Shown here in pieces: positions 12,152 to 60,140 of a stretch of 64,000 nucleotides of DNA. The DNA is from Patescibacteria group bacterium (GTDB lineage Bacteria > Patescibacteriota > Patescibacteriia > Patescibacteriales > WJLG01): assembly GCA_028707065.1 (NCBI GenBank), contig JAQTUZ010000001.1:1551-65550 (forward strand). Direction: 5' to 3'. Made by a program: the position numbers and the translations under genes. The notes beneath the pieces are model-generated. The model worked only from the letters and a program-made list of their open reading frames with translations. It ran no database searches and was not told the DNA's origin. Positions within the stretch are counted from its first letter, which is position 1; each line of letters opens with the position of its first letter.

Positions 12152-12299
12152 GATTTTATTTCGGTTATCGTAAAAAGATCACCTGTTCAGTAAACAAATT
12201 TGTATAAAATAGATCCTTCTCCGCCCGGGGCGGATCAGGATGACAAAAAACTGGAAAGCGCAACAACTAAGTACCTAATCAACTAATTGACTAATAGAC

Positions 12300-15551: not shown

Positions 15552-15662
15552 TATAATCCGAATACTACAAATTATATCCGAATACTACGAACTCCACGAA
15601 CCGAACAAATTTTCGTTAAAATGTTCGTGGTATTCGGATATTTCGTAGGTTCGGATTATAAA
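15552..15662. mobile_element. Repeat family 3, copy A: ~110-bp MITE-like element with terminal inverted repeats (ATAATCCGAATACTAC ... GTAGGTTCGGATTAT) and internal CGAATACTACGAAC/GTTCGTGGTATTCG arms
   Basis: Sits between infC and rpmI and ends 7 nt from the rpmI start codon; related copies at 23878..23979, 42369..42493, 48414..48536 and 49058..49112. Confidence 0.75.
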
Positions 15663-32152: not shown

Positions 32153-32313
32153 ACATCCTCCTTTGCCGCCTCATTGCCAAAATCCGCCCAAAGCGGACCG
32201 GCGCCGACTTAGCATTGGTTAAGGTTGAAAAAGTGCCTTTTTGCGGTCATTTAACCGCAAAAAACATAACCCGATATTAGCACAAAATTATTTTCCTGTC
32301 AACCTCACCTCAT

Positions 32314-32494
32314 TTGTCATCCTGAGCGCCGCGCGAAGGATCTATTATAGGAGATGCTTCTAAAAACATCAGCAAACATTAGAACGAACAAGTAAAAAAT
32401 ATCATCGATAAAAAAATTGGCAGTAGTAATTCAAGTTTTGCCTAGAATAGATCCTTCGTCGTCAGCCGAGGCGGCCTCCTCCTCAGGATGACAA
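32314..32494. mobile_element. Repeat family 4, copy 1: 181-bp MITE-like element with ~30-bp TIRs (TTGTCATCCTGAGCGCCGCGCGAAGGATCTATT / AATAGATCCTTCG..CTCAGGATGACAA)
   Basis: Near-perfect terminal inverted repeats with an AT-rich core; lies immediately downstream of the recQ stop. Confidence 0.8.
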
Positions 32495-32508: not shown

Positions 32509-34755
32509 CTACTTGTTACCTGATACCTGTTTGAATTTCGCCCGCGCAATTTTAATTTCTTCCCAAGAATAATCATCGCCAAGTTCGTCTTTGATCGGCG
32601 TCAGTTTTTCAAAGCCGACTTTTTTAATGGCGGCGAAAATCTTGTCCTGTTTTTTAGAACTCACCAATTTATCGATGTCTTTTATCAAGCCTTTTTCAAT
32701 TAAAAATACTAAGTGGTTATAAATCGTTTCAACGGTGAAGCCGCGCGCGCCGGCGATCCCGGCCGGATTGTAATTCTTGTTGAACAATTCCAAAGTTTCC
32801 AATTGCGTCAATTTGGTATTCAAAGTTTTCTTCTCCACCTTTATTTCTCCAAAATCCACCTTTAACACACCCCGGCGCTCCGAGACGTCGCGCCACCCCT
32901 CTCGAGAGGGGACTTTTTTAAAATCTTTTCGTGCGTAGCGATTCCCCTCTGGAGAGGGGTGGCTCGCGCCTCGCGAGACGGGGTGTGTGACGTCCGAAGC
33001 TCCGCCCAAACAATTATCGCACTTGCCGCAGTGTTCAACGTCGTATTCGCCGAAGTAATTCAGAATATATTCCGGACGGCAACTGAAATGATAGACATAA
33101 TCTTCCATCTCGTCTAATTTACTGTAAGCCCGGGCGGCTTTTTCGCGCATCGCCGAAAAATCTATCTTGACTTCGGATCGCGGAACGCGTTTCAAAATTT
33201 GGATTTCCGTACCGCGCTTAGGCGGATTATATTCGACCAGCTCGGCTTTTTTCCAGGCATTAATCGAGCGCACCAAAGCTTCGCGGCCGACTTCGATAGT
33301 TCCGGCCACTTCATCCAGATCAAATTCCCAGCCCTCGAACAACTCGGTGGCAAACCGCGCGTTCAATTTATTCAAGATTTCCACCTGCTTCTTGGCTTGT
33401 TTGGAAACAAAATCCAAAGTCGTCTGATGATTATTGATCATCCTTAAAAATGCCGGCGAAGTTTTTTCGCTCGAGCGGGCGATATAACCTTCTTTTTCCA
33501 GAATTTTCAAACAGGTGCCGACGGCCATGTCCGGGACTTTGTCCGACAAATTTTCCATCAGCTCGGCATAAGTCGTAAAAATCCGGTCGGTTTCATAGTT
33601 AGTCAAAACTTCGTAAATTTCCAGAACTGTTTCCGGCGCCGGGTTATCGCCCTTGATAAAAAATTCCCGCAAGAACCGATCCTTGGGCGCAAAAAATAAA
33701 AGACAAAGCGAAGGCGCGCCATCGCGACCGGCCCGGCCGGCCTCCTGATAATAGGCCTCGATCGTCCCCGGCATATCGTGATGAATCACGAAGCGCACGT
33801 CTTTTTTATCAATCCCTAAGCCGAAAGCGTTGGTGGCAACGATTATTTTAGTTTTGCCTTTCAGAAAATTTTCCTGCGTCCAAGAACGGCTTTCCGGATC
33901 CATCCCGGCGTGATAAAAAACCGCTTCCAAACCGCGCTCTAGTAATACGTCGGTAACTTCTTCAGCTTTGGCGCGCGTGCCGGTGTAAATTATCCCACAG
34001 CCTTCGACGCTTTCGGCCGCGTCAGCGATCAGCGATAATTTTTGCGCGTCCGGCGCTTTGATCACGCCGAATTGCAGATTCGGCCGGGTAAAGCCGGTGA
34101 TTATTTTTTTCACCCCAGTCATATTTAGCTGCTTCACAATATCCTCTTTTACTTCAGGTGTAGCTGTAGCTGTAAGCGCAACTATGGGAGGGTGACCGCA
34201 AAGTTCGATCGCTCTGCCCAATCTCATATAGCTGGGCCGGAAATCATGACCCCATTGCGAAATGCAATGCGCTTCGTCCACTGCGAATAATTTCACTTTC
34301 AACTGAGCAAGCTGTGAAACAAATTCATCATTATAAAATCTTTCCGGTGCGATATATAAAAGTTTATAAAATTCTTTTTTGACCAACTCCAACCTCTCTT
34401 TGGCCTCGTCGGGCGAGATCGAAGAATTGATGAAAGTCGCGGGCACGCCGATCTTATTCATCGAATCAACCTGATCTTTCATCAAGGCGATCAGCGGCGA
34501 AACCACGATTGCCACGCCGTCCAATACCAAAGCCGGCAATTGAAAAATCAAAGACTTGCCGCCGCCGGTCGGCATCACGACTAAAACGTCTTTGCCGTCC
34601 AAGATGGCGTCGATCGCTTCTTCCTGCCCGGGCCTAAATTTATCAAAACCATAATGGATTTTGAGCAATTCGACCGCCTGCTTCTTTTTTTGACTGGCTC
34701 CGGCAGAGTCTCGCGTAGCGGACTCTGCCGTTAAATTCGTATTTTCGGTATTCAT
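32509..34755 (-). CDS. recQ: ATP-dependent DNA helicase RecQ family with in-frame repeat-element insertions
   Basis: Helicase motifs (VVMPTGGGKS, DEAH) and a zinc-binding CGKCDNC. Family-7 elements at 32862..32911 and 32944..32989 and a family-2 hairpin at 34694..34729 are in-frame without stop codons. The true N-terminus is uncertain. Confidence 0.85.
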   Translation of the reverse strand: MNTENTNLTAESATRDSAGASQKKKQAVELLKIHYGFDKFRPGQEEAIDAILDGKDVLVVMPTGGGKSLIFQLPALVLDGVAIVVSPLIALMKDQVDSMNKIGVPATFINSSISPDEAKERLELVKKEFYKLLYIAPERFYNDEFVSQLAQLKVKLFAVDEAHCISQWGHDFRPSYMRLGRAIELCGHPPIVALTATATPEVKEDIVKQLNMTGVKKIITGFTRPNLQFGVIKAPDAQKLSLIADAAESVEGCGIIYTGTRAKAEEVTDVLLERGLEAVFYHAGMDPESRSWTQENFLKGKTKIIVATNAFGLGIDKKDVRFVIHHDMPGTIEAYYQEAGRAGRDGAPSLCLLFFAPKDRFLREFFIKGDNPAPETVLEIYEVLTNYETDRIFTTYAELMENLSDKVPDMAVGTCLKILEKEGYIARSSEKTSPAFLRMINNHQTTLDFVSKQAKKQVEILNKLNARFATELFEGWEFDLDEVAGTIEVGREALVRSINAWKKAELVEYNPPKRGTEIQILKRVPRSEVKIDFSAMREKAARAYSKLDEMEDYVYHFSCRPEYILNYFGEYDVEHCGKCDNCLGGASDVTHPVSRGASHPSPEGNRYARKDFKKVPSREGWRDVSERRGVLKVDFGEIKVEKKTLNTKLTQLETLELFNKNYNPAGIAGARGFTVETIYNHLVFLIEKGLIKDIDKLVSSKKQDKIFAAIKKVGFEKLTPIKDELGDDYSWEEIKIARAKFKQVSGNK
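32862..32989. repeat. Repeat family 7, copies ii and iii (inverted relative to each other) inside recQ coding sequence
   Basis: TTAACACACCCCG..CCACCCCTCTCGAGAGGGGA at 32862..32911 and its reverse-orientation relative at 32944..32989. They encode KKVPSREGWRDVSERRGVLK and DVTHPVSRGASHPSPEGN in the RecQ frame. Confidence 0.8.
34694..34729. repeat. Repeat family 2, copy c (37-bp hairpin) within the annotated recQ N-terminus
   Basis: CTGGCTCCGGCAGAGTCTCGCGTAGCGGACTCTGCC. Confidence 0.8.
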
Positions 34756-34828
34756 CTAATTCATCTTATAAAAAATACCGGCTATGCGCAAGCCGGGAAA
34801 TGTTTCATAAAAATAAGTGGTTCTTGTT

Positions 34829-34980
34829 TTGTCATCCTGCCTGCCCGGCCAGGGAGCGCGTCGCGAAGGATCTATTACACGCGAAGCGCGAACATCGTTG
34901 ACAAAAATTTTTATCGTATTGATATGGGCCTCATGAGTAATAGATCCTTCACTCCGCTCCGCTGCGTTCAGGATGACAAA
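34829..34980. mobile_element. Repeat family 4, copy 2 (152 bp) between recQ and the GIY-YIG gene
   Basis: TIRs TTGTCATCCTG..CGAAGGATCTATTA / TAATAGATCCTTC..CAGGATGACAA; the right TIR supplies the last codons of the GIY-YIG ORF. Confidence 0.8.
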
Positions 34981-42368: not shown

Positions 42369-42493
42369 ATATAATCTGAATACTACAAATTGTATCCGAA
42401 TTCTACGAACTCTACAAATCGAAAAATTTTCCGTAAAAAACGTTCGTAGTATTCGGTCCGCCAGCTGGCGGATTTCGTAGGTTCGGATTATAT
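42369..42493. mobile_element. Repeat family 3, copy C
   Basis: TIRs ATAATCTGAATACTACAAATT ... TTTCGTAGGTTCGGATTATAT; ends 8 nt upstream of the terC start. Confidence 0.75.
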
Positions 42494-44750: not shown

Positions 44751-46559
44751 TCAATTCTGCCCATTTTTTTTAACCATATATCCTTCTTCAAGGCGATAGC
44801 CGAGCTTTTTATAATAACCGCGCGTGCCGATCCCGGCGATAACCGCAATTTGATTAAAATTATTCTGTCGGGCGATCTTTTCCGCTTCGGCCAAAAGTTT
44901 TCTTCCCAATCCGCCGTGCTGGATTCCCCCCTCCTTTTCAAGGAGGGGTTTGGGGGTGGTTCTCCCGCCGACCGGCACCAGCTCGCCATACACATGCAAC
45001 TCTCTAACTATTGCCGAATTATTTAAAAAAGAATATTTTTCATCCGCTATCTTTTTGTCATCCTGAGCGCCGCGCGAAGGATCTATTGTCCGAGAAATTT
45101 TCAATTTCGCAATAAAAAATTTTGATTGAATAAAATCGGCGTTCTTACAAAATAGATCCTTCGTCAGGGACTCAGGATGACAAAGAAACGGAAGGCGTAA
45201 ACGGCAAAAACCGTAAAGCGTTTTCCCGTCTTGTGAATCAAAAGAAATGAAATATTCCTGTCCGCCCGACGCGGGATATTCTTGAATATTCAATTTCAAC
45301 TTTCCAGCTTTAATAGTTTTATCTTTAACTTCGCGGCAGCGGATGCAGCGGCAGCGCGCGCCTTCCTGCTGCATAACCTGGCGCAGATTAGTGATCGTGT
45401 TTCCCGCTTCGATCGATTCGCCGGGAATATCGCGGATCAATCTGATAATCCGGACATATTCGGGCACTGCTTTTTTGCAATCGATAATTAGCTGACGCAA
45501 AACTTTATCGGAGTACGGGCGATATTTGCCAGCCTTCCACCATCGATAAAGTTTTGAACCCTTAGTCACGACTGTCGGATAAAATTTTATCTGGTCCGGC
45601 TGGAAGCGCTCGTCAGAAAATGATTGCTTGAACATCGCCAGATCTTTTTTAGCCGTCGCGCCGGGCAAGCCCGGCATCAGATGATACGTGACTTTGAACC
45701 CAAAATTTTTCAGCAGTTCGGTCGCGCGGACAATTTCGGCCACGCCGTGACCGCGATTATTTTTCGCCAAAATTTTATCATCGACCGCCTGCACGCCCAA
45801 CTCGACCCGCGTCGCGCCCAGCTCGCGCATTTCGATCAATTCTTTCTCATCAATATAATCGGGCCTCGTCTCCAAAGTAATACCGATAATCTTATATTTT
45901 GCTTTTTCGTTTTTCTTCTGCTCGGAAAATAATTGCTTTTTAGTTTCTTCCAGCTTTAACACACCCCGTCTTGCGCGGCGCAAGCCACCCCTCTCGAGAG
46001 GGGACTTCTTATTTAATGCCCCGTCGCAGTCTCCGCCGCGGGACTGCGACGAAAACTCATTTGCCGCGCGGAAGCATTCTTTGATAAACCAAAATTTATA
46101 AGCGCGGGGCAAGACGCTCCAAGTTCCGCCGATCACGATCAGTTCGATCTTTTCCGGGCGATGGCCATTGATCTCCAAAGCTTCCAAGCGCGTCCGCACC
46201 TGCTCGTACGGATCATATTTATTACGGATCGCCCGCATCACGGCCGGCTCGTTAGACAAATAACTTTTTGGCACGTTTTTTTCCGTGGGGCAAAACGCGC
46301 ACTTGCCCGGACATTTCCAAGGCTTGGTCAAAACCGCCACCGGCGCCACGCCGGAAAGCGTGCGCACGGCGCGCCGCTTTAACAGCCGCGCGAATTTTTC
46401 ATCGAATTTAACCCGGCCGCTTTTTACCAAAAGCAAATACTCCCGCCACAGTTCCGAATGCCGGGGAAGTTCTTCACCTTTTTTGACCAATTTCCGCTTC
46501 AGGGCCATCAATTCTGCGGCGGTTTTTGGTTTTTGCTTAATAATTTCACCGATCATCAT
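44751..46559 (-). CDS. Elp3-family radical SAM/GNAT protein (tRNA wobble-uridine modification homolog) carrying two in-frame repeat-element insertions
   Basis: CPGKCAFCP radical-SAM cysteine cluster. The C-terminal GNAT region (FCRLRLP..VRELHVYG..QHGGLGRKLL.EAEKIAR) resembles Elp3. Element copies at 45055..45183 and 45956..46004 sit in-frame. Confidence 0.75.
   Translation of the reverse strand: MMIGEIIKQKPKTAAELMALKRKLVKKGEELPRHSELWREYLLLVKSGRVKFDEKFARLLKRRAVRTLSGVAPVAVLTKPWKCPGKCAFCPTEKNVPKSYLSNEPAVMRAIRNKYDPYEQVRTRLEALEINGHRPEKIELIVIGGTWSVLPRAYKFWFIKECFRAANEFSSQSRGGDCDGALNKKSPLERGGLRRARRGVLKLEETKKQLFSEQKKNEKAKYKIIGITLETRPDYIDEKELIEMRELGATRVELGVQAVDDKILAKNNRGHGVAEIVRATELLKNFGFKVTYHLMPGLPGATAKKDLAMFKQSFSDERFQPDQIKFYPTVVTKGSKLYRWWKAGKYRPYSDKVLRQLIIDCKKAVPEYVRIIRLIRDIPGESIEAGNTITNLRQVMQQEGARCRCIRCREVKDKTIKAGKLKLNIQEYPASGGQEYFISFDSQDGKTLYGFCRLRLPFLCHPESLTKDLFCKNADFIQSKFFIAKLKISRTIDPSRGAQDDKKIADEKYSFLNNSAIVRELHVYGELVPVGGRTTPKPLLEKEGGIQHGGLGRKLLAEAEKIARQNNFNQIAVIAGIGTRGYYKKLGYRLEEGYMVKKNGQN
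45055..45183. mobile_element. Repeat family 4, copy 3, inserted in-frame in the GNAT domain of the Elp3-like gene
   Basis: TIRs TTGTCATCCTGAGCG.../...CTCAGGATGACAA; translated on the minus strand as LCHPESLTKDLFCKNADFIQSKFFIAKLKISRTIDPSRGAQDDK with no stop. Confidence 0.8.
45956..46004. repeat. Repeat family 7, copy iv, in-frame in the radical-SAM domain of the Elp3-like gene
   Basis: TTAACACACCCCGTCTTGCGCGGCGCAAGCCACCCCTCTCGAGAGGGGA encodes KSPLERGGLRRARRGVLK. Confidence 0.8.
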
Positions 46560-46700: not shown

Positions 46701-47699
46701 ATGCCTTATCTATTCCTTTTTTTGGGTTTGCTGTTAGCGAGCCCGATCGCGGCGGCGGGTGATAGCATCGCCTGCCCGACTTCCAAAGGATTGACTTCGC
46801 TGACGGATTCCCTGATCAAACAGGGCAAGGACGGCAAATGGGGCCTATACGGACTGACCACCAGAACGAGAAACTATGATTCAGTTAATTCGGCCAATCG
46901 GTACGAGATCGATGACACGCGCAAGACTCTGCGTAAGCGGGATATGGTGATTGTCAATGCGGGAATCACCGCCGAGCAGGCCACGCTGGCCCTGCATCAT
47001 CCCGATTCGCTGACCTCGGCAACCACAGTAAGCAAGTATGATGGCTGGCAATTTTGGCTGACAGAAAAAAAATCAGCCACCGGCATCGCTTATCATGGTG
47101 ATGAGCAAAAGACGGTCCAGAGGCAGACCAACGAGCTGGAGTCAAAAGTGTCTTGGAAGCTTGCGCTTTGCCTCTTCCTTATAAGCCTCTTCAGCGTTCT
47201 CTGCGCCCTGGATCTTTCCAAAAATACGCGGTTTAGAAACTCGAAGCACTTGATTTTCGCGAGTCTCTACTGTCTGGCGGTGATGGCCGTTCTGGTCAGC
47301 GAAGCAGTTGCCCTTTTCCAGACTCCGGCAATTACCTGGCCCAGAAAATTGCTGCTCGTGAACCTGGGGGCGTCCTTCCTTTTTATGGTCCTGATTGCCT
47401 TCAGCTTCAAAGATCAGCTGAAAATCCTGGTTAAGCCCAAGCTTAAGTTCGAAATCAAAGGAGCAGTCAGAGAATGGGTTTTGCCGCTGGGAATTTTCAC
47501 GATCGCGGAATTGGTGATTTACGCCGGCATGATCACCAACAGCTCTTTTGCTTTGTTGGGCTATGCGGGCGTTGCCGTCGCGTTTTTTCTTATTTTCGCC
47601 GGGCTCCCGGCCGGAATTGATGGCTTTAAAAATTGGCGGAGCAAAAAAAAGCCCGTCAAAACCGCACAACCACCCCAACAACCGCCTCGGAAGCAATGA
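46701..47699 (+). CDS. Membrane protein, hypothetical (signal peptide, extracytoplasmic N-domain, ~4 TM, Pro/Gln-rich tail)
   Basis: AGGAGG SD 6 nt upstream; hydrophobicity pattern. Confidence 0.55.
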   Translation: MPYLFLFLGLLLASPIAAAGDSIACPTSKGLTSLTDSLIKQGKDGKWGLYGLTTRTRNYDSVNSANRYEIDDTRKTLRKRDMVIVNAGITAEQATLALHHPDSLTSATTVSKYDGWQFWLTEKKSATGIAYHGDEQKTVQRQTNELESKVSWKLALCLFLISLFSVLCALDLSKNTRFRNSKHLIFASLYCLAVMAVLVSEAVALFQTPAITWPRKLLLVNLGASFLFMVLIAFSFKDQLKILVKPKLKFEIKGAVREWVLPLGIFTIAELVIYAGMITNSSFALLGYAGVAVAFFLIFAGLPAGIDGFKNWRSKKKPVKTAQPPQQPPRKQ

Positions 47700-47968
47700 T
47701 GAGTCAAAGCGAACAGTACTCCTGTTCGCTTTTTTATTTACCTTATGATTAAATTGGCCGGCGACCACCTCGCGTATTTGCGGATGGAAGAACATAATGC
47801 GAAACTACGTTTCTTACTTCTAACTTCTTACTTCGTTCCGGTTTCTCTTGCTTTTTCCGGCCTATCGTGTTATCTTTATTGTATCTTTAAAAATTAACTG
47901 TTTACCCCAACTTGGTTGCGGCAGAGGCTCTTTGAGCCTTAACCGTTTCTCGGCTGGGGAAAAAGCCA

Positions 47969-48346
47969 ATGTTAGACAAAAAAATCAAAGAAAAGATCAT
48001 CAAAAAGTTTCAGGAACATGCCAACGATACCGGTTCGCCGCAAGTGCAGATCGCCATTTTGACCGAAGAGATCAAACAATTGACCAAGCATTTGCAGGAA
48101 CACCGCAAAGATTTCTCTTCCCGCCGCGGTTTATTGAAGAAAGTCAGTGAACGCCGAAAACTTTTGAAATATCTGCAGAAAGAGAATGAAAAAGCTTTCA
48201 AGGACGTGGCGGAAAAATTAAAGTTGAAGATCGCCAAAAAAATGGAAGACGATAAAGAAAGGGAAGATGAACTGGCTCGCCTGGCCGAAGAAGGCCACGA
48301 GGAAGACCTGTTGAACGAAGCCGAGATCGCCGAAAAAAACGAATAG
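47969..48346 (+). CDS. rpsO: 30S ribosomal protein S15 with an acidic C-terminal extension
   Basis: [16 protein letters not shown]...[25 protein letters not shown] matches S15; an extra ~35-aa Glu/Asp-rich tail follows. Confidence 0.85.
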
Positions 48347-48413
48347 TTTTTATAATATAGGCCCAGCTTTTGGGTCTATATTTGTTAAGAGGCTTTTTAC
48401 AAATTTTCAAGTC

Positions 48414-48536
48414 AGTATATAATGCGAATACTACAAATTGTGCGCGAATACTACGAACGGATTTAACGAATTAAAAATAATTCGATAAATAATTTGCGGT
48501 ATTCGCGAATAATTCGTTGTATTCGCATCATGTCAT
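48414..48536. mobile_element. Repeat family 3, copy D
   Basis: TIRs TAATGCGAATACTACAAATT ... AATTCGTTGTATTCGCATCA; abuts the NYN gene start (6 nt). Confidence 0.75.
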
Positions 48537-49034
48537 ATGATAAAACATAAAGAACAGAGGGTTGGGGTGCTTGTTGATGCCTCCAATATGTATCATTCGG
48601 CGAGAAATCTTTTCGGCGCGCATCTAAATTATAAAGAAGTTTTGGACGTCGCGGTCGCCGGCCGGAAATTGATCCGGGCGATAGCTTACGTGGTCAAAAC
48701 CGAAGGCGAAGAAGAAACGCCGTTTTTTGAAGCTTTGTCGCAGTTGGGTTTTGAAATTAATATGAAAGACTTGCAAATTTTCCCGGGCGGAATGAAAAAA
48801 GCCGACTGGGATGTCGGTCTTTCGGTCGACGCGATCAAGCTGGCGGAAAAATTGGATGTGATTGTTTTGGTTACCGGCGACGGCGACTATCTGCCTTTAG
48901 TTGAATATCTGCAAAACACCAAAGGCTGCCTCGTCGAAGTCCTCGCCTTCCGCAAATCCGCCTCATCCAAACTGATCGAAGCCGCCGATGATTTTATTGA
49001 TTTGAGCGAGAATAAAAAATTCTTGATTCGCTAA
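48537..49034 (+). CDS. NYN-domain (LabA-like/DUF88) putative ribonuclease
   Basis: VGVLVDASNMYHSAR...VLVTGDGDYLPLV conserved acidic residues typical of the NYN/PIN-like fold. Confidence 0.65.
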   Translation: MIKHKEQRVGVLVDASNMYHSARNLFGAHLNYKEVLDVAVAGRKLIRAIAYVVKTEGEEETPFFEALSQLGFEINMKDLQIFPGGMKKADWDVGLSVDAIKLAEKLDVIVLVTGDGDYLPLVEYLQNTKGCLVEVLAFRKSASSKLIEAADDFIDLSENKKFLIR

Positions 49035-49057
49035 TTTTTTATAACCAGCTTGCTCAT

Positions 49058-49112
49058 ATAATGCGAACCTACGAATTGTACGCGAATACTACGAACAGTT
49101 TAACGAAGTTTA
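49058..49112. repeat. Repeat family 3, partial copy E (left-end half)
   Basis: ATAATGCGAACCTACGAATTGTACGCGAATACTACGAAC matches the left ends of copies A to D; no right TIR. Confidence 0.6.
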
Positions 49113-49131
49113 TTCGACTATTAATAAACCT

Positions 49132-49644
49132 ATGAAAAAAATTATTTTCCTTTTCGTTTCCGTTTTATTATTAGCAGGATGTGATTATAAAATTGTCAAA
49201 GAGCAACCAACTCAAAATTTTACAATACCGTCTATCGGCCAAATACAAACGAGCTCTCGGGCAACGCCAGAAACTAATACACAAACTAAGCAAAGTAATT
49301 TAACCTTACAAGCTAAATGTTCAAAAGATGCTGAAAATTTTTTTAATCTACATTGGCGCAAATCCATTCCTACCGGAATGTTAGCCTTAGATTATCAAAA
49401 TCATTACAACAAAACTCTTGATAAATGCTTTATACTAATAATATTCAATTTCAAAACTGACATAGGCGACGGATCTCCGGCGTCATACACAAATGATAAA
49501 TTTTTATATGACGTTTACGAGAATGTTCAATATGGAACAATAGATATTACAGACAAAATTTTACAAAAGTGTGAAGTTTCTAGTAAAAAATGTGTTTCCC
49601 TCGATGATTTTAATAATTTATCCGAATCATACATGAATAATTAA
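49132..49644 (+). CDS. Lipoprotein, hypothetical (AT-rich)
   Basis: Signal peptide with lipobox LLAGC, 170 aa; base composition much more AT-rich than the flanks. Confidence 0.5.
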   Translation: MKKIIFLFVSVLLLAGCDYKIVKEQPTQNFTIPSIGQIQTSSRATPETNTQTKQSNLTLQAKCSKDAENFFNLHWRKSIPTGMLALDYQNHYNKTLDKCFILIIFNFKTDIGDGSPASYTNDKFLYDVYENVQYGTIDITDKILQKCEVSSKKCVSLDDFNNLSESYMNN

Positions 49645-49664
49645 ACCTATCGATGTTTAATACT

Positions 49665-49829
49665 ATGAAAAAGTGTCCACGATGCCATTCGGAAAAAATA
49701 GAAAACTTACACATGGCCATTCTTCGCCGAGATGGTAAACCAACAAAATTTATGGGAGAGGCTGATTTTGTTAATTGTCAATGTGGAAACTGTGGCGAAA
49801 AATTTAAAATTCCTTATAGCGAGCATTGA
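49665..49829 (+). CDS. Small zinc-ribbon protein (CxxC-x31-CxCGNC); not in the supplied ORF track
   Basis: Manual translation gives MKKCPRCHSEKIENLHMAILRRDGKPTKFMGEADFVNCQCGNCGEKFKIPYSEH*. Confidence 0.4.
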   Translation: MKKCPRCHSEKIENLHMAILRRDGKPTKFMGEADFVNCQCGNCGEKFKIPYSEH

Positions 49830-50104
49830 AAAATTTTGGAAATGACGCGCAGCGTAGAGGCCGTGCAAAATTGCGTTGTCCGAAGTCCCGCTTCATTATT
49901 ACAATTTTATAAACGAAGGCGGGCAAGTATAGCAATTTTGCTAGGCTTCATAGCGGAGCGGCCCAAAATTTTTCCTGCGAGCAGTTTTTGCGCCACTTTT
50001 TTAAAAAAGTGGCAAAAGATATTTTAATTAATTTAAATAACGCCTGGTCGCCAAACATGCAGTTCCCAATCGGACTGAAGTTTGTCGGCCAAGCACAAAA
50101 GAAA

Positions 50105-52369
50105 ATGTCAGAAAAATTTCAAGAACAAAGAGTGTCCGGACCATGGCTTGGCCGGGAACTCTCCTTGCGCGCCGGTAAAGTGGCGCTGCAGGCCGATGCG
50201 GCCGTCATCGCCCAATATGGCGAGACCGTCGTCTTAGCCACCGTCGTCGAAGCCCAGGAAGAGCGCAACATCGATTATTTCCCGCTGACCGTTGATTTTG
50301 AAGAACGGCTTTATGCCGCCGGCATCATCAAAGGTTCGCGCTGGATCAAACGAGAAGGCCGCCCGACCGATGAATCGATCTTAAACGGCCGGATGGTCGA
50401 CCGTTCTTTGCGTCCGCTTTTTTCAGGTGTTTCGCGCAAAGATACGCAGATCGTCTGCACCGTGCTCTCTTATGACACGGAAAATAATTACGACATCGTC
50501 GGCTTAGTCGCCGCTTCGGCCGCGCTTTCCATTTCCGGAGTGGAATGGAAAGGCCCGGTTGGCGGAGTCAAAGTCGGCTTGATCGATGGCAACATAATTT
50601 TCAATCCGACTTACTCGCAAATGGCGACCAGTCAGATGGAATTGACTATCGTCGGCACCAAGGAGCGCACGATTATGATCGAAGCTTCCGCCAACGAAGT
50701 AAAGGAAGAAATAATGCTGGATGCGATCAGCCAGGCGCAAATCGAAATGCAGCCGGCGATCGAATTGATCAACGCCTTTAAGAAAAAAGTCGGCGTCAAA
50801 GAAAAAATAGAAAAAACCCAGCTGCTTTCCCCGGAACAGATCCAAAAATCCGAAGAAAAGAAAAAATTGATCGCTATTGCCGAAGGCTGGCTCAAGAAAA
50901 ATGTTTATCCCATTCTTTTTGACAAGCAATATTACACCAAGGGTGATAGAAAATTAGCCGTGGCCAAGATCGAAGCCGACCTGGATAAATTTCTTTTCGA
51001 CCAAGGCATCGACGAAGATCAACGCGGCTTTATCGTCGGCCAAACCGTCGAAGGCGCAGTCTATTCCGAAATAACCAAACAACTTTTGGATAACGAACGC
51101 CGCGTCGACGGTCGCAAGCTTGACGAGATCCGTCCGCTTTATTCGGAAGTAAATTTATTGCCGCGCAACCACGGCTCAGGTCTATTTATGAGAGGCGAGA
51201 CCCAGATCTTGTCCATCATCACTTTGGGCGCTCCGGGCTTGGAACAAAACCTGGAAGGATTGGAAGGCAAGAGCACTAAGCGCTTTATGCATCATTATAA
51301 TTTTCCTTCTTACTCGGTCGGCGAGACCGGACCGAACCGCGGACCGGGCCGCCGCGAGATCGGCCATGGCGCTTTGGCGGAAAAAGCCTTGCTCCCGGTC
51401 GTTCCGGAAAAAAATGATTTCCCTTATACCATCCGCGTCGTTTCCGAAACCATGGGTTCGAACGGCTCGTCTTCGATGGCTTCAACCTGCTGCGCTTCAT
51501 TATCCTTGATGGATGCGGGCGTACCGATCAAGCGTCCGGTCGCGGGCGTGGCCATCGGTTTGGCCTCCAATGCCGATATGAGCCAATGGAAAGTCTTAAC
51601 CGATATCCAGGATCTGGAAGATGGCCAAGGCGGGATGGATTTTAAGATCACCGGCACGTCAGTTGGCATCACCGCGATTCAACTTGATACCAAAACCGAT
51701 GGTTTGACCATGGAAATAGTCGAAGAAGCTTTGGAGCGCGGCCGCAAAGGCAGAATGCAAATCCTTGAAGTCATGACTCAGGCTATTCCCGCGCCAAGAG
51801 CTGAATTATCCAAATATGCTCCGCGCGTGGTCAGCTTCGCGATCAATCCGGACAAGATCCGCGACGTGATCGGCGCCGGCGGCAAGATCATCAACAAGAT
51901 TATCGAAGAGCATGAAGTTGAAATTGATATTGAAGACGACGGTATGGTCTTTGTCACGGGTTCGAAAGCCGAGCAAGTGGCCAAGGCGGTCGATTGGATC
52001 AAAAATATCGCCCACGAATTCAAGGTCGGCGAAATCTTCACCGGACCGGTGGCGCGCATCCTGGACTTCGGCGCTTTTGTCGAATTAACTCCGGGCAGCG
52101 ACGGCATGGTCCATGTTTCCAAATTGGCGCCGTATCGCGTCGGCCGTCCGGGCGACTTGCTTGATCCGGGAATGATGGTCACGGTCAAGATCGACGAGAT
52201 CGATGAAATGGGCCGCATCAATCTTTCGATGAAAGATTGCCCGGAAAATGCCCATCTCTGGGTTGACAAGAAAGGCGAACAGAAAGGTGATTTCAATACC
52301 GGCTTCCGCCCGCGCCGAGACTTCGGCGACCGCGGCGGCAATCGCGGACCAAGACGAGAGCGGAGATAA
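50105..52369 (+). CDS. pnp: Polyribonucleotide nucleotidyltransferase (PNPase) with an Arg/Gly-rich C-terminal tail
   Basis: Two RNase PH domains, KH and S1 domains; the likely start is the Met at 50105 (MSEKFQEQ...), while the ORF-track start at 49988 is an upstream extension. Confidence 0.9.
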   Translation: MSEKFQEQRVSGPWLGRELSLRAGKVALQADAAVIAQYGETVVLATVVEAQEERNIDYFPLTVDFEERLYAAGIIKGSRWIKREGRPTDESILNGRMVDRSLRPLFSGVSRKDTQIVCTVLSYDTENNYDIVGLVAASAALSISGVEWKGPVGGVKVGLIDGNIIFNPTYSQMATSQMELTIVGTKERTIMIEASANEVKEEIMLDAISQAQIEMQPAIELINAFKKKVGVKEKIEKTQLLSPEQIQKSEEKKKLIAIAEGWLKKNVYPILFDKQYYTKGDRKLAVAKIEADLDKFLFDQGIDEDQRGFIVGQTVEGAVYSEITKQLLDNERRVDGRKLDEIRPLYSEVNLLPRNHGSGLFMRGETQILSIITLGAPGLEQNLEGLEGKSTKRFMHHYNFPSYSVGETGPNRGPGRREIGHGALAEKALLPVVPEKNDFPYTIRVVSETMGSNGSSSMASTCCASLSLMDAGVPIKRPVAGVAIGLASNADMSQWKVLTDIQDLEDGQGGMDFKITGTSVGITAIQLDTKTDGLTMEIVEEALERGRKGRMQILEVMTQAIPAPRAELSKYAPRVVSFAINPDKIRDVIGAGGKIINKIIEEHEVEIDIEDDGMVFVTGSKAEQVAKAVDWIKNIAHEFKVGEIFTGPVARILDFGAFVELTPGSDGMVHVSKLAPYRVGRPGDLLDPGMMVTVKIDEIDEMGRINLSMKDCPENAHLWVDKKGEQKGDFNTGFRPRRDFGDRGGNRGPRRERR

Positions 52370-59685: not shown

Positions 59686-60140
59686 TGAGGAAGCGGGACT
59701 CGAACTAGGCAGGAGCGAGACAAGTTTGCCGCCGCAATTCCGGCGGCGGTAAACGTAGTCGAGCGTCCGCCGACCAGCCGGGGGCTGGTCGGCGCTGCCT
59801 CTGGACAAGTGAGCGGAGCGGAAGCGACGCGAGCGCGACAACCGTTTGTTAAAATTGAACTGCTTGGCTCGGCGAGGGACTCGAAAGCCGGAGCGATGCC
59901 AGCCGAGCTTTCCGGCGAGGCTGGCCGCGAGGCGGGGTCGCGACCGAGCGAGCGGAAGCGAGCGAGAGTTGTGACCGAGTCCCGTCCAGAGCGACGAATA
60001 ATCGAGCGACGCCGGCCTTTCGGGAAAAGGCTGCCGCCAACCCTGGACAAGAGAGCGAGCCGCTTTCCGGCGGCGAGCGAACGCGGAAGTCCAGTCTATT
60101 GCCAACTGCTTGGCTCGGCGAGGGACTCGAAAGGCTCAAG
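59686..60140. repeat. GC-rich repeat array downstream of tRNA-Asp containing direct and inverted copies of the tRNA-Asp 3' end (GGGACTCGAA x3, CGAGTCCCGTCCA)
   Basis: Also holds a duplicated 30-mer ACTGCTTGGCTCGGCGAGGGACTCGAAAG and a ~100-bp module (59883..59997) shared with the tRNA-Ala locus. The 137-180-aa ORFs predicted here are artefacts. Confidence 0.7.

Follow-up and report, generated by a model that had tools for sequence, protein, structure and literature searches.

The 64,000-nucleotide stretch analysed here (hereafter the window), from contig JAQTUZ010000001.1 of a Patescibacteria group bacterium that is Falkowbacteria-like within the Patescibacteria (CPR), carries on its forward strand the ribosomal protein S15 gene rpsO (47969–48346; 125 amino acids (aa) with a K/E-rich C-terminal tail; PF00312, E = 1.2e-32; TIGR00952, E = 4.6e-33), a LabA-type NYN-domain nuclease gene (48537–49034; 165 aa, 498 bp; PF01936, E = 1.7e-33) and the polynucleotide phosphorylase (PNPase) gene pnp (50105–52369; 754 aa with two RNase_PH domains and KH and S1 domains; 64% identical to a Falkowbacteria PNPase). 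Co-oriented and in the same neighbourhood, rpsO and pnp are separated by 1,758 bp from stop to start, an interval that holds, besides the NYN gene, a hairpin just after rpsO, a palindromic repeat of a family that we call family 3 (element D), a one-armed copy of the same family (half-element E), a lipoprotein gene, a small CxxC open reading frame (ORF) and a leader hairpin in front of pnp. The genes and repeats named in a first-pass annotation of this DNA are all present, the genes being confirmed by ORFs and Pfam matches (with the CxxC ORF at 49653–49829). That annotation, however, had read the interval as a 1.7-kb insertion, with D and E as the ends of a composite transposon derived from a miniature inverted-repeat transposable element (MITE) and the NYN gene as its cargo.

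Gene order was compared across 80 loci of PNPase relatives, which were retrieved and searched with the window proteins (tblastn). The order S15–NYN–PNPase was found in 15 of the 16 Patescibacteria loci that were informative (L001–L004, L006–L011, L013, L021, L023, L052 and L074), the NYN proteins being 56–76% identical; L031 (Nealsonbacteria) is the sole locus with S15 directly beside PNPase, and L020 has the pair NYN–PNPase at a contig end. The NYN gene is absent from all ~60 Bacillota and Chloroflexota loci of the 80-locus set, in which S15 and PNPase are present. Five contigs with an NYN protein ~90% identical to that of the window (L127, L128, L129, L130 and a 58-kb contig; hereafter the close relatives) have the same S15–NYN–PNPase order, and across relatives the gene stands at the same site at 56–92% identity, mostly without any repeat. 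Spacing is tight: the S15–NYN gap is 0–47 nt in the Patescibacteria loci (4 nt or less, or an overlap, in seven of them), the NYN–PNPase gap is as small as 3–8 nt in some, and deeper lineages have spacers of 3–140 nt. These gap sizes point to probable co-transcription of the three genes.

Because relatives carry the NYN gene at the same place, loci without repeats included, it is, judging from synteny, the conserved ancestral middle gene of the Patescibacteria rpsO–pnp operon and not transposon cargo. For the NYN gene, this is the outcome that the first-pass annotation itself had named as refuting an insertion. A composite transposon dropped into a contiguous rpsO–pnp operon would account for the physical position of the gene between a full and a half family-3 element, and passenger genes between family-3 arms are indeed seen in other contigs (see below); yet it is a most improbable explanation in the face of the order shared by 15 of 16 informative loci and five close relatives (some without repeats and at 0–4-nt spacing), the native composition of the gene (GC content at third codon positions (GC3) of 0.54), the matching TATAAT arms of D and E, which are direct and not inverted, the single arm of E, and the lack of any transposase. 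Target-site duplications were sought at 48414 and 49112, and none was recognisable. The supposed 1.7-kb insertion also shrinks: its ancestral parts are the NYN gene (498 bp), the hairpin after rpsO and the pnp leader, which leaves only ~146 bp and ~1 kb as lineage-specific. Transposon cargo inside an essential operon was thus a plausible but wrong annotation, which is corrected here. No paper on an NYN gene within the Patescibacteria rpsO–pnp operon was found in the literature.

The Escherichia coli rpsO–pnp operon has an rpsO terminator, a pnp leader hairpin that is cleaved by RNase III, and autoregulation by PNPase. As in E. coli, pnp is found downstream of the S15 gene in the same orientation, a hairpin follows rpsO, and a long conserved leader hairpin stands just before the pnp start; unlike in E. 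coli, a conserved third gene (that is, NYN), often apparently in translational coupling with rpsO, lies in between, and two lineage-specific inserts are found in this genome. The operon is thus of a known kind in a variant form, and its lineage-specific insertions are instructive but otherwise ordinary.

Sequence added to the two spacers

Just 3′ of the rpsO stop, the window and all four of its closest relatives share a hairpin (ATATAGGCCCA-GCTTT-TGGGTCTATAT, then TTGTT; 48355–48381, forward strand; −15.3 kcal/mol, z = −2.7), which is kept in L127, L128 and L130 with base changes that preserve pairing and which, by its fold, looks like a terminator or attenuator. What comes after this hairpin varies: in L127 and the 58-kb contig nothing follows, the whole spacer up to the NYN ATG being 48 nt; in L128 and L129, ~40 nt are followed by a related palindrome (TATAAT-TCGAATCTACGAA..., folding free energy (ΔG) −55 kcal/mol); in L130 an unrelated palindrome follows (ΔG −61 kcal/mol); and in the window ~30 nt are followed by element D. 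Given that such close relatives have no element, a related palindrome or an unrelated one at this site, the rpsO–NYN spacer is, on this comparison, a hot spot for MITE-like palindromes.

Element D (48418–48531; found by inverted-repeat search, no strand assigned) is a 114-nt palindrome with two GCGAATACTACRAA 14-mers per arm, 20 bp apart, and folds at −46.8 kcal/mol (z = −7.4). Its left extension (48388–48423, forward strand) contains a sigma-70-like promoter, TTTACA (48396–48401) followed after 16 nt by TATAAT (48418–48423), which agrees at 11 of 12 positions and is the best promoter-like match within 47650–50200; the extension is missing at the empty site of L127 and conserved in L128. D and this extension make up the ~146 bp that are lineage-specific in the first spacer. 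The element is 88% identical to family-3 copy B (~23875–23983, upstream of the trigger factor gene), and both copies have the same arm asymmetries, which suggests that they were copied from a common source. At permissive thresholds Rfam aligned D only with plant miRNA-precursor models, an artefact of its long hairpin, and at gathering thresholds the Rfam scan returned the tmRNA and tRNAs only.

The left end of the cassette in the second spacer is half-element E (49057–49125, forward strand), which consists of one family-3 arm (TATAAT and two 14-mers, aligning with the left arm of D) and a central mini-hairpin; it does not fold, and its arm points at the lipoprotein gene (49132–49644, forward strand). 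The latter encodes 170 aa with a signal peptide and a lipobox (LPAM_1 match) and is AT-rich, as the first-pass annotation had it (GC3 0.246). Its status as an orphan, suggested by a word-based search that matched the protein only to itself, was dropped after a full HMMER search gave 585 homologues at E ≤ 1e-3, which are distant (37–49% identity at best) small hypothetical proteins. Eight nucleotides past the lipoprotein stop lies the 58-aa CxxC ORF (49653–49829, forward strand; GC3 0.271), for which no homologue was found; its zinc-ribbon matches are all sub-threshold, a zinc ribbon being possible and its status as a real gene uncertain. The right end of the segment is a module of ~80 nt (49953–50030, forward strand) with the palindrome GCCACTTTTTT/AAAAAAGTGGC at 49992–50013; over 81 nt it is 86% identical to positions 1429–1350 of L125, where it lies inside a family-3 element together with a 67-aa ORF.

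In all, ~1 kb of the second spacer (49035–50030) is lineage-specific. The two passenger ORFs are, on compositional and comparative grounds, foreign to the site, because their GC3 of 0.25 and 0.27 stands against 0.54–0.61 in the neighbouring genes and no related locus holds a counterpart of either (for the lipoprotein, no tblastn match). Where the window has ~1 kb between the NYN stop and the pnp leader, a membrane ORF of 151 aa (GC3 0.26) is seen in L127 and the 58-kb contig, an ORF of ~143 aa in L001, a 58-aa ORF with a 19-bp inverted repeat on either side in L128, and ~35 nt in L130. The 58-aa ORF of L128 (region 1300–1650, inverted repeat AAAATACTTTTAGAGG...) has a strong Shine–Dalgarno site, and the pnp leader hairpin of the same contig has an internal insertion of ~60 nt.

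That several relatives hold some ORF in the second spacer could be taken to mean that the palindromes and the lipoprotein and zinc-ribbon ORFs are themselves ancestral and were lost elsewhere, with no insertion in this lineage at all. We consider this very unlikely: each occupied relative has a different, unrelated ORF, the GC3 of the window ORFs (0.25–0.27) marks a foreign origin, deeper lineages have spacers of only 3–140 nt, and the first spacer is known in three different fillings and one empty state. D and the E–lipoprotein–zinc-ribbon segment are, by the same comparison of loci, lineage-specific additions to an operon that already held the NYN gene. Since other contigs have variable passenger genes between family-3 arms, E, the lipoprotein gene, the zinc-ribbon ORF and the ~80-nt module together look like a one-armed family-3 cargo cassette; the cargo idea of the first-pass annotation thus fits the pair of ORFs downstream of E, though not the NYN gene. 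A weak direct repeat around the cassette (13 of 16 positions; 49029–44 and 49991–50006) overlaps a palindrome, and no target-site duplication flanks E or the ~1-kb cassette.

Downstream of the cassette, and 10 nt upstream of the pnp ATG, the pnp leader hairpin is intact (50042–50094, forward strand; −23.4 kcal/mol, z = −4.6). It is homologous in nine relatives, and across the ten sequences (that is, the window and these nine) compensatory changes are seen in 12 of its 23 pairs. As this leader is untouched, the control of pnp by its own hairpin is probably preserved, which weakens the earlier suggestion that the insertion had rewired pnp autoregulation.

Family-3 repeats and their passenger genes

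The family-3 repeat is real: its 14-mer GCGAATACTACGAA occurs 17 times in the window (with up to three mismatches) against 6.7 ± 2.5 expected, a count that no shuffle reached. Five copies are present, four of which are full palindromes of 100–125 nt (~15552–15652, copy A; 23875–23983, copy B; 42370–42492; and 48418–48531, D) that fold stably at ΔG −44 to −47 kcal/mol (z ~−7). A scan of metagenome contigs with the two-14-mer arm as the query, TATAAT being left out of the pattern, matched 46 contigs; exact TATAAT is nonetheless found in most of the 46 independent arms, and in many cases a conserved CTTGGGTA and a hairpin resembling a terminator stand upstream of it. Single arms make up about half of the copies in these contigs; almost every copy has one end 4–36 nt away from a start codon, and some contigs hold as many as ~1 copy per kb. 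The idea that the element ends are outward-facing, leaderless promoters was rejected, the −10-like hexamer being only 1–6 nt from the ATG in most copies.

Family-3 arms bracket variable passenger genes. In L119, two arms surround a 131-aa ORF. In L125, the order is arm, 67-aa ORF, terminator, ~80-nt module, a nested GC-rich repeat and second arm, and the 67-aa ORF has its own promoter-like sequence and Shine–Dalgarno site. Three strains differ in what the same pair of arms encloses at an orthologous site that is flanked by a 396-aa and a ~902-aa gene: an EamA transporter gene in L103 (79–1301); a CmpB-like gene, an SDR gene and the EamA gene in L094 (3750–6050); and the 67-aa ORF with the module in L125 (1225–1890). 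A transposase was sought between distant inverted arms ~2.2 kb apart (L094 and L109) and rejected, as the genes there are housekeeping genes, namely those for an SDR protein, an EamA transporter, an HD-domain protein and a tRNA synthetase.

The Correia repeat-enclosed elements of Neisseria and the ERIC, RUP and BOX repeats are bacterial MITEs. Family-3 repeats resemble them in being non-coding palindromes of 100–150 bp, present in many copies, intergenic by gene starts and with −10-like boxes at their ends, in forming long hairpins in read-through RNA, and in their presence/absence polymorphism at orthologous sites; they differ in having no sequence relationship to any of these and in the build of the arm (two direct 14-mers 20 bp apart). 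These features suit a MITE-like repeat that bears a promoter, and family 3 is in this respect comparable to Correia elements. A second comparison is with mobile insertion cassettes, in which passenger genes lie between inverted repeats without a transposase (PMC4337579, PMC6542083). Family-3 arms likewise flank non-transposase passengers in L119, L125, L094 and L103, and the E segment of the window shares its 3′ module with one of these (L125); unlike such cassettes, the window copy is one-armed, and an exchange of cassettes by homologous recombination between dispersed arms would fit equally well. The cassettes may have been mobilised in trans or exchanged by such recombination. No paper describing these repeats was found in the literature.

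The same data can be viewed in another way, in which family 3 is not mobile and is a selected regulatory module of gene starts (that is, a promoter with an operator or a 5′-leader hairpin), a view that is partly compatible with our own. The exact TATAAT of most arms, often following CTTGGGTA and a terminator-like hairpin, the short distance to start codons and the high density in some contigs all speak for it. We nevertheless regard it as doubtful, since presence and absence vary at orthologous sites of relatives that are 90% identical, an unrelated palindrome takes its place in L130, the asymmetries shared by the B and D arms look as if copied from a master sequence, other repeats are nested in family-3 loops, half-elements occur in both orientations, and the genes downstream (L35, trigger factor, a membrane protein and NYN) are functionally unrelated. 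A palindromic family with promoter-like ends around variable passengers bears on how accessory genes are gained and expressed in these organisms, and the rpsO–pnp locus illustrates that even in streamlined genomes both spacers of a core operon repeatedly acquire palindromic repeats and small foreign ORFs.

Two further observations concern family 3 in the window. Copy A (15552–15652) stands 8 nt upstream of a gene read as L35 (rpmI), and the ORFs before and after that gene are presumably infC and rplT, respectively (assigned from gene order alone); if these readings hold, copy A would split a second conserved ribosomal/translation operon. In addition, CATAATGCGAAACTACG at 47794–47811, ~175 nt upstream of rpsO and just past the terminator of the upstream gene (47706–47732), resembles the start of a family-3 arm, a likeness that may be fortuitous or may mark an arm that has decayed.

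Proposed expression and function of the NYN gene

The NYN protein scores 116.6 bits against PF01936 (Pfam cut-off, 24.2), matches PDB 2QIP at E = 7.5e-26 and scores under the cut-off of TIGR00288. An exact look-up of the protein sequence gave nothing, and a 100% match lies in an NCBI contig from a metagenome-assembled genome. In 12 operonic homologues (57–76% identity), D14, N17, D90, D92, D98, D115, D117 and D151 are invariant, including the acidic metal-binding residues (D14, D90, D92, D115 and D117). The protein is like LabA/COG1432 proteins (VPA0982, PDB 2QIP) in having a single NYN domain with conserved acidic active-site residues; unlike others of that group, the subgroup found in the window has a fixed place in the rpsO–pnp operon. 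PADLOC gave a generic NYN domain match only, with no defence-system context. The conserved operon offers a testable RNA-metabolism setting for the LabA/NYN family, beside PNPase and a primary 16S rRNA-binding protein.

The 5′ leader of rpsO is also conserved (47905–47968, forward strand): a CTTGG...hairpin...CTCGG motif precedes the S15 ATG in the window and in eight relatives (L001, L002, L004, L006, L007, L074, L128 and L130), in which invariant C–G, U·G, G·U and G–C pairs close a variable hairpin and covariation is seen in the outer helix. It has no Rfam match, and it could be a candidate S15 autoregulatory structure that mimics the rRNA site.

We propose that the NYN protein would be made alongside S15 and PNPase and act as a metal-dependent endoribonuclease, whose internal cuts may supply 3′ ends to PNPase in mRNA decay and/or 16S rRNA maturation. 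In the ancestral state, rpsO and NYN would have been translationally coupled, with the leader hairpin controlling pnp. In the genome studied here, element D may uncouple rpsO from NYN, its TATAAT together with the flanking TTTACA probably forming an internal promoter of the NYN gene, and the ~50-bp D hairpin in read-through RNA could serve as a processing or stabilising site for a double-strand-specific (RNase III-type) enzyme. The E arm may similarly promote the passenger genes.

A bolder version of this proposal, tentative and in our estimate rather unlikely, is that NYN is a dedicated endonuclease partner of PNPase, forming with it a minimal two-enzyme RNA-decay or rRNA-trimming module, stoichiometric with S15, which may cut the pnp leader as RNase III does in E. 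coli. If true, this would be the first biochemical function for a bacterial family whose members, over 8,000 proteins, are uncharacterised. It is also possible, if still somewhat unlikely, that NYN is no decay partner of PNPase and instead has a ribosome-linked role (for example, 16S rRNA maturation or ribosome-associated cleavage) or is a non-catalytic regulator like cyanobacterial LabA. In many lineages the S15 and NYN genes overlap or have at most 4 nt between them, in most the NYN–pnp gap is the wider one, and work on gene neighbourhoods has tied bacterial NYN domains to tRNA and rRNA processing (PMC5499597); however, NYN and pnp are also near-contiguous in some lineages (3–8 nt), the invariant catalytic residues speak against a non-catalytic protein, and the related eukaryotic PF01936 proteins MARF1 and DNE1 are mRNA-decay endonucleases (PMC6294520, PMC10226599).

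Taken as a whole, an ancestral NYN operon with two lineage-specific spacer additions that works as proposed above seems to us the probable account of this region. A number of points weigh against it. For the additions, no direct repeat flanks D, whose terminal TA is part of the palindrome itself and may or may not be a target duplication; a right arm for the E cassette was not found in 50015–50045; the ~80-nt module is common to just one other contig; and no transposase with matching ends is present in the window or the 46 contigs, such that family-3 mobility would rest on presence/absence among relatives and on the similarity of copies. The orientation of arms toward downstream genes is biased in the raw count (16 versus 4), but not significantly so without orthologous duplicates (~10 versus 4). 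For the operon, several loci come from metagenome-assembled genomes with unreliable taxon labels, and its breadth across Patescibacteria is only roughly known. For the proposed working, we infer the promoter, processing and coupling roles alike, and no bacterial LabA-type NYN protein has demonstrated nuclease activity, the bacterial members being uncharacterised (PMC5499597).

Other repeats in the window

Repeats other than family 3 are present in the window, some of them inside genes. A GC-rich palindromic repeat (...CCACCCCTC...GAGGGGA...) occurs at 45959–46004 and 32943–32988 within long ORFs, namely a 602-aa radical-SAM/ELP3-like gene (44751–46559) and a 748-aa ORF (32509–34755), in both of which the frame stays open, and the same repeat is nested in the family-3 loops of L081, L089, L096, L107, L121 and L125. 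In its position within ORFs it recalls the Rickettsia palindromic elements, which are inserted in-frame in genes. Another repeat family (TTTGTCATCCTGAGCG...CGAAGGATC) is found at 45054–45184, 32313–32354, 34828–34884 and 12219–12250, and within the 3′ part of the ELP3-like ORF it forms an inverted pair that does not disrupt the frame; the encoded protein has 602 aa in the window versus 541 aa in the contig of a close relative.

Near the tmRNA gene (21065–21448), a 59-nt direct repeat (20789–20847 and 20985–21043; 98% identical) precedes the gene, and a 79-nt stretch at 20858–20936 is an inverted match (82%) to 59760–59838, beside tRNA-Asp (region 59760–60057).

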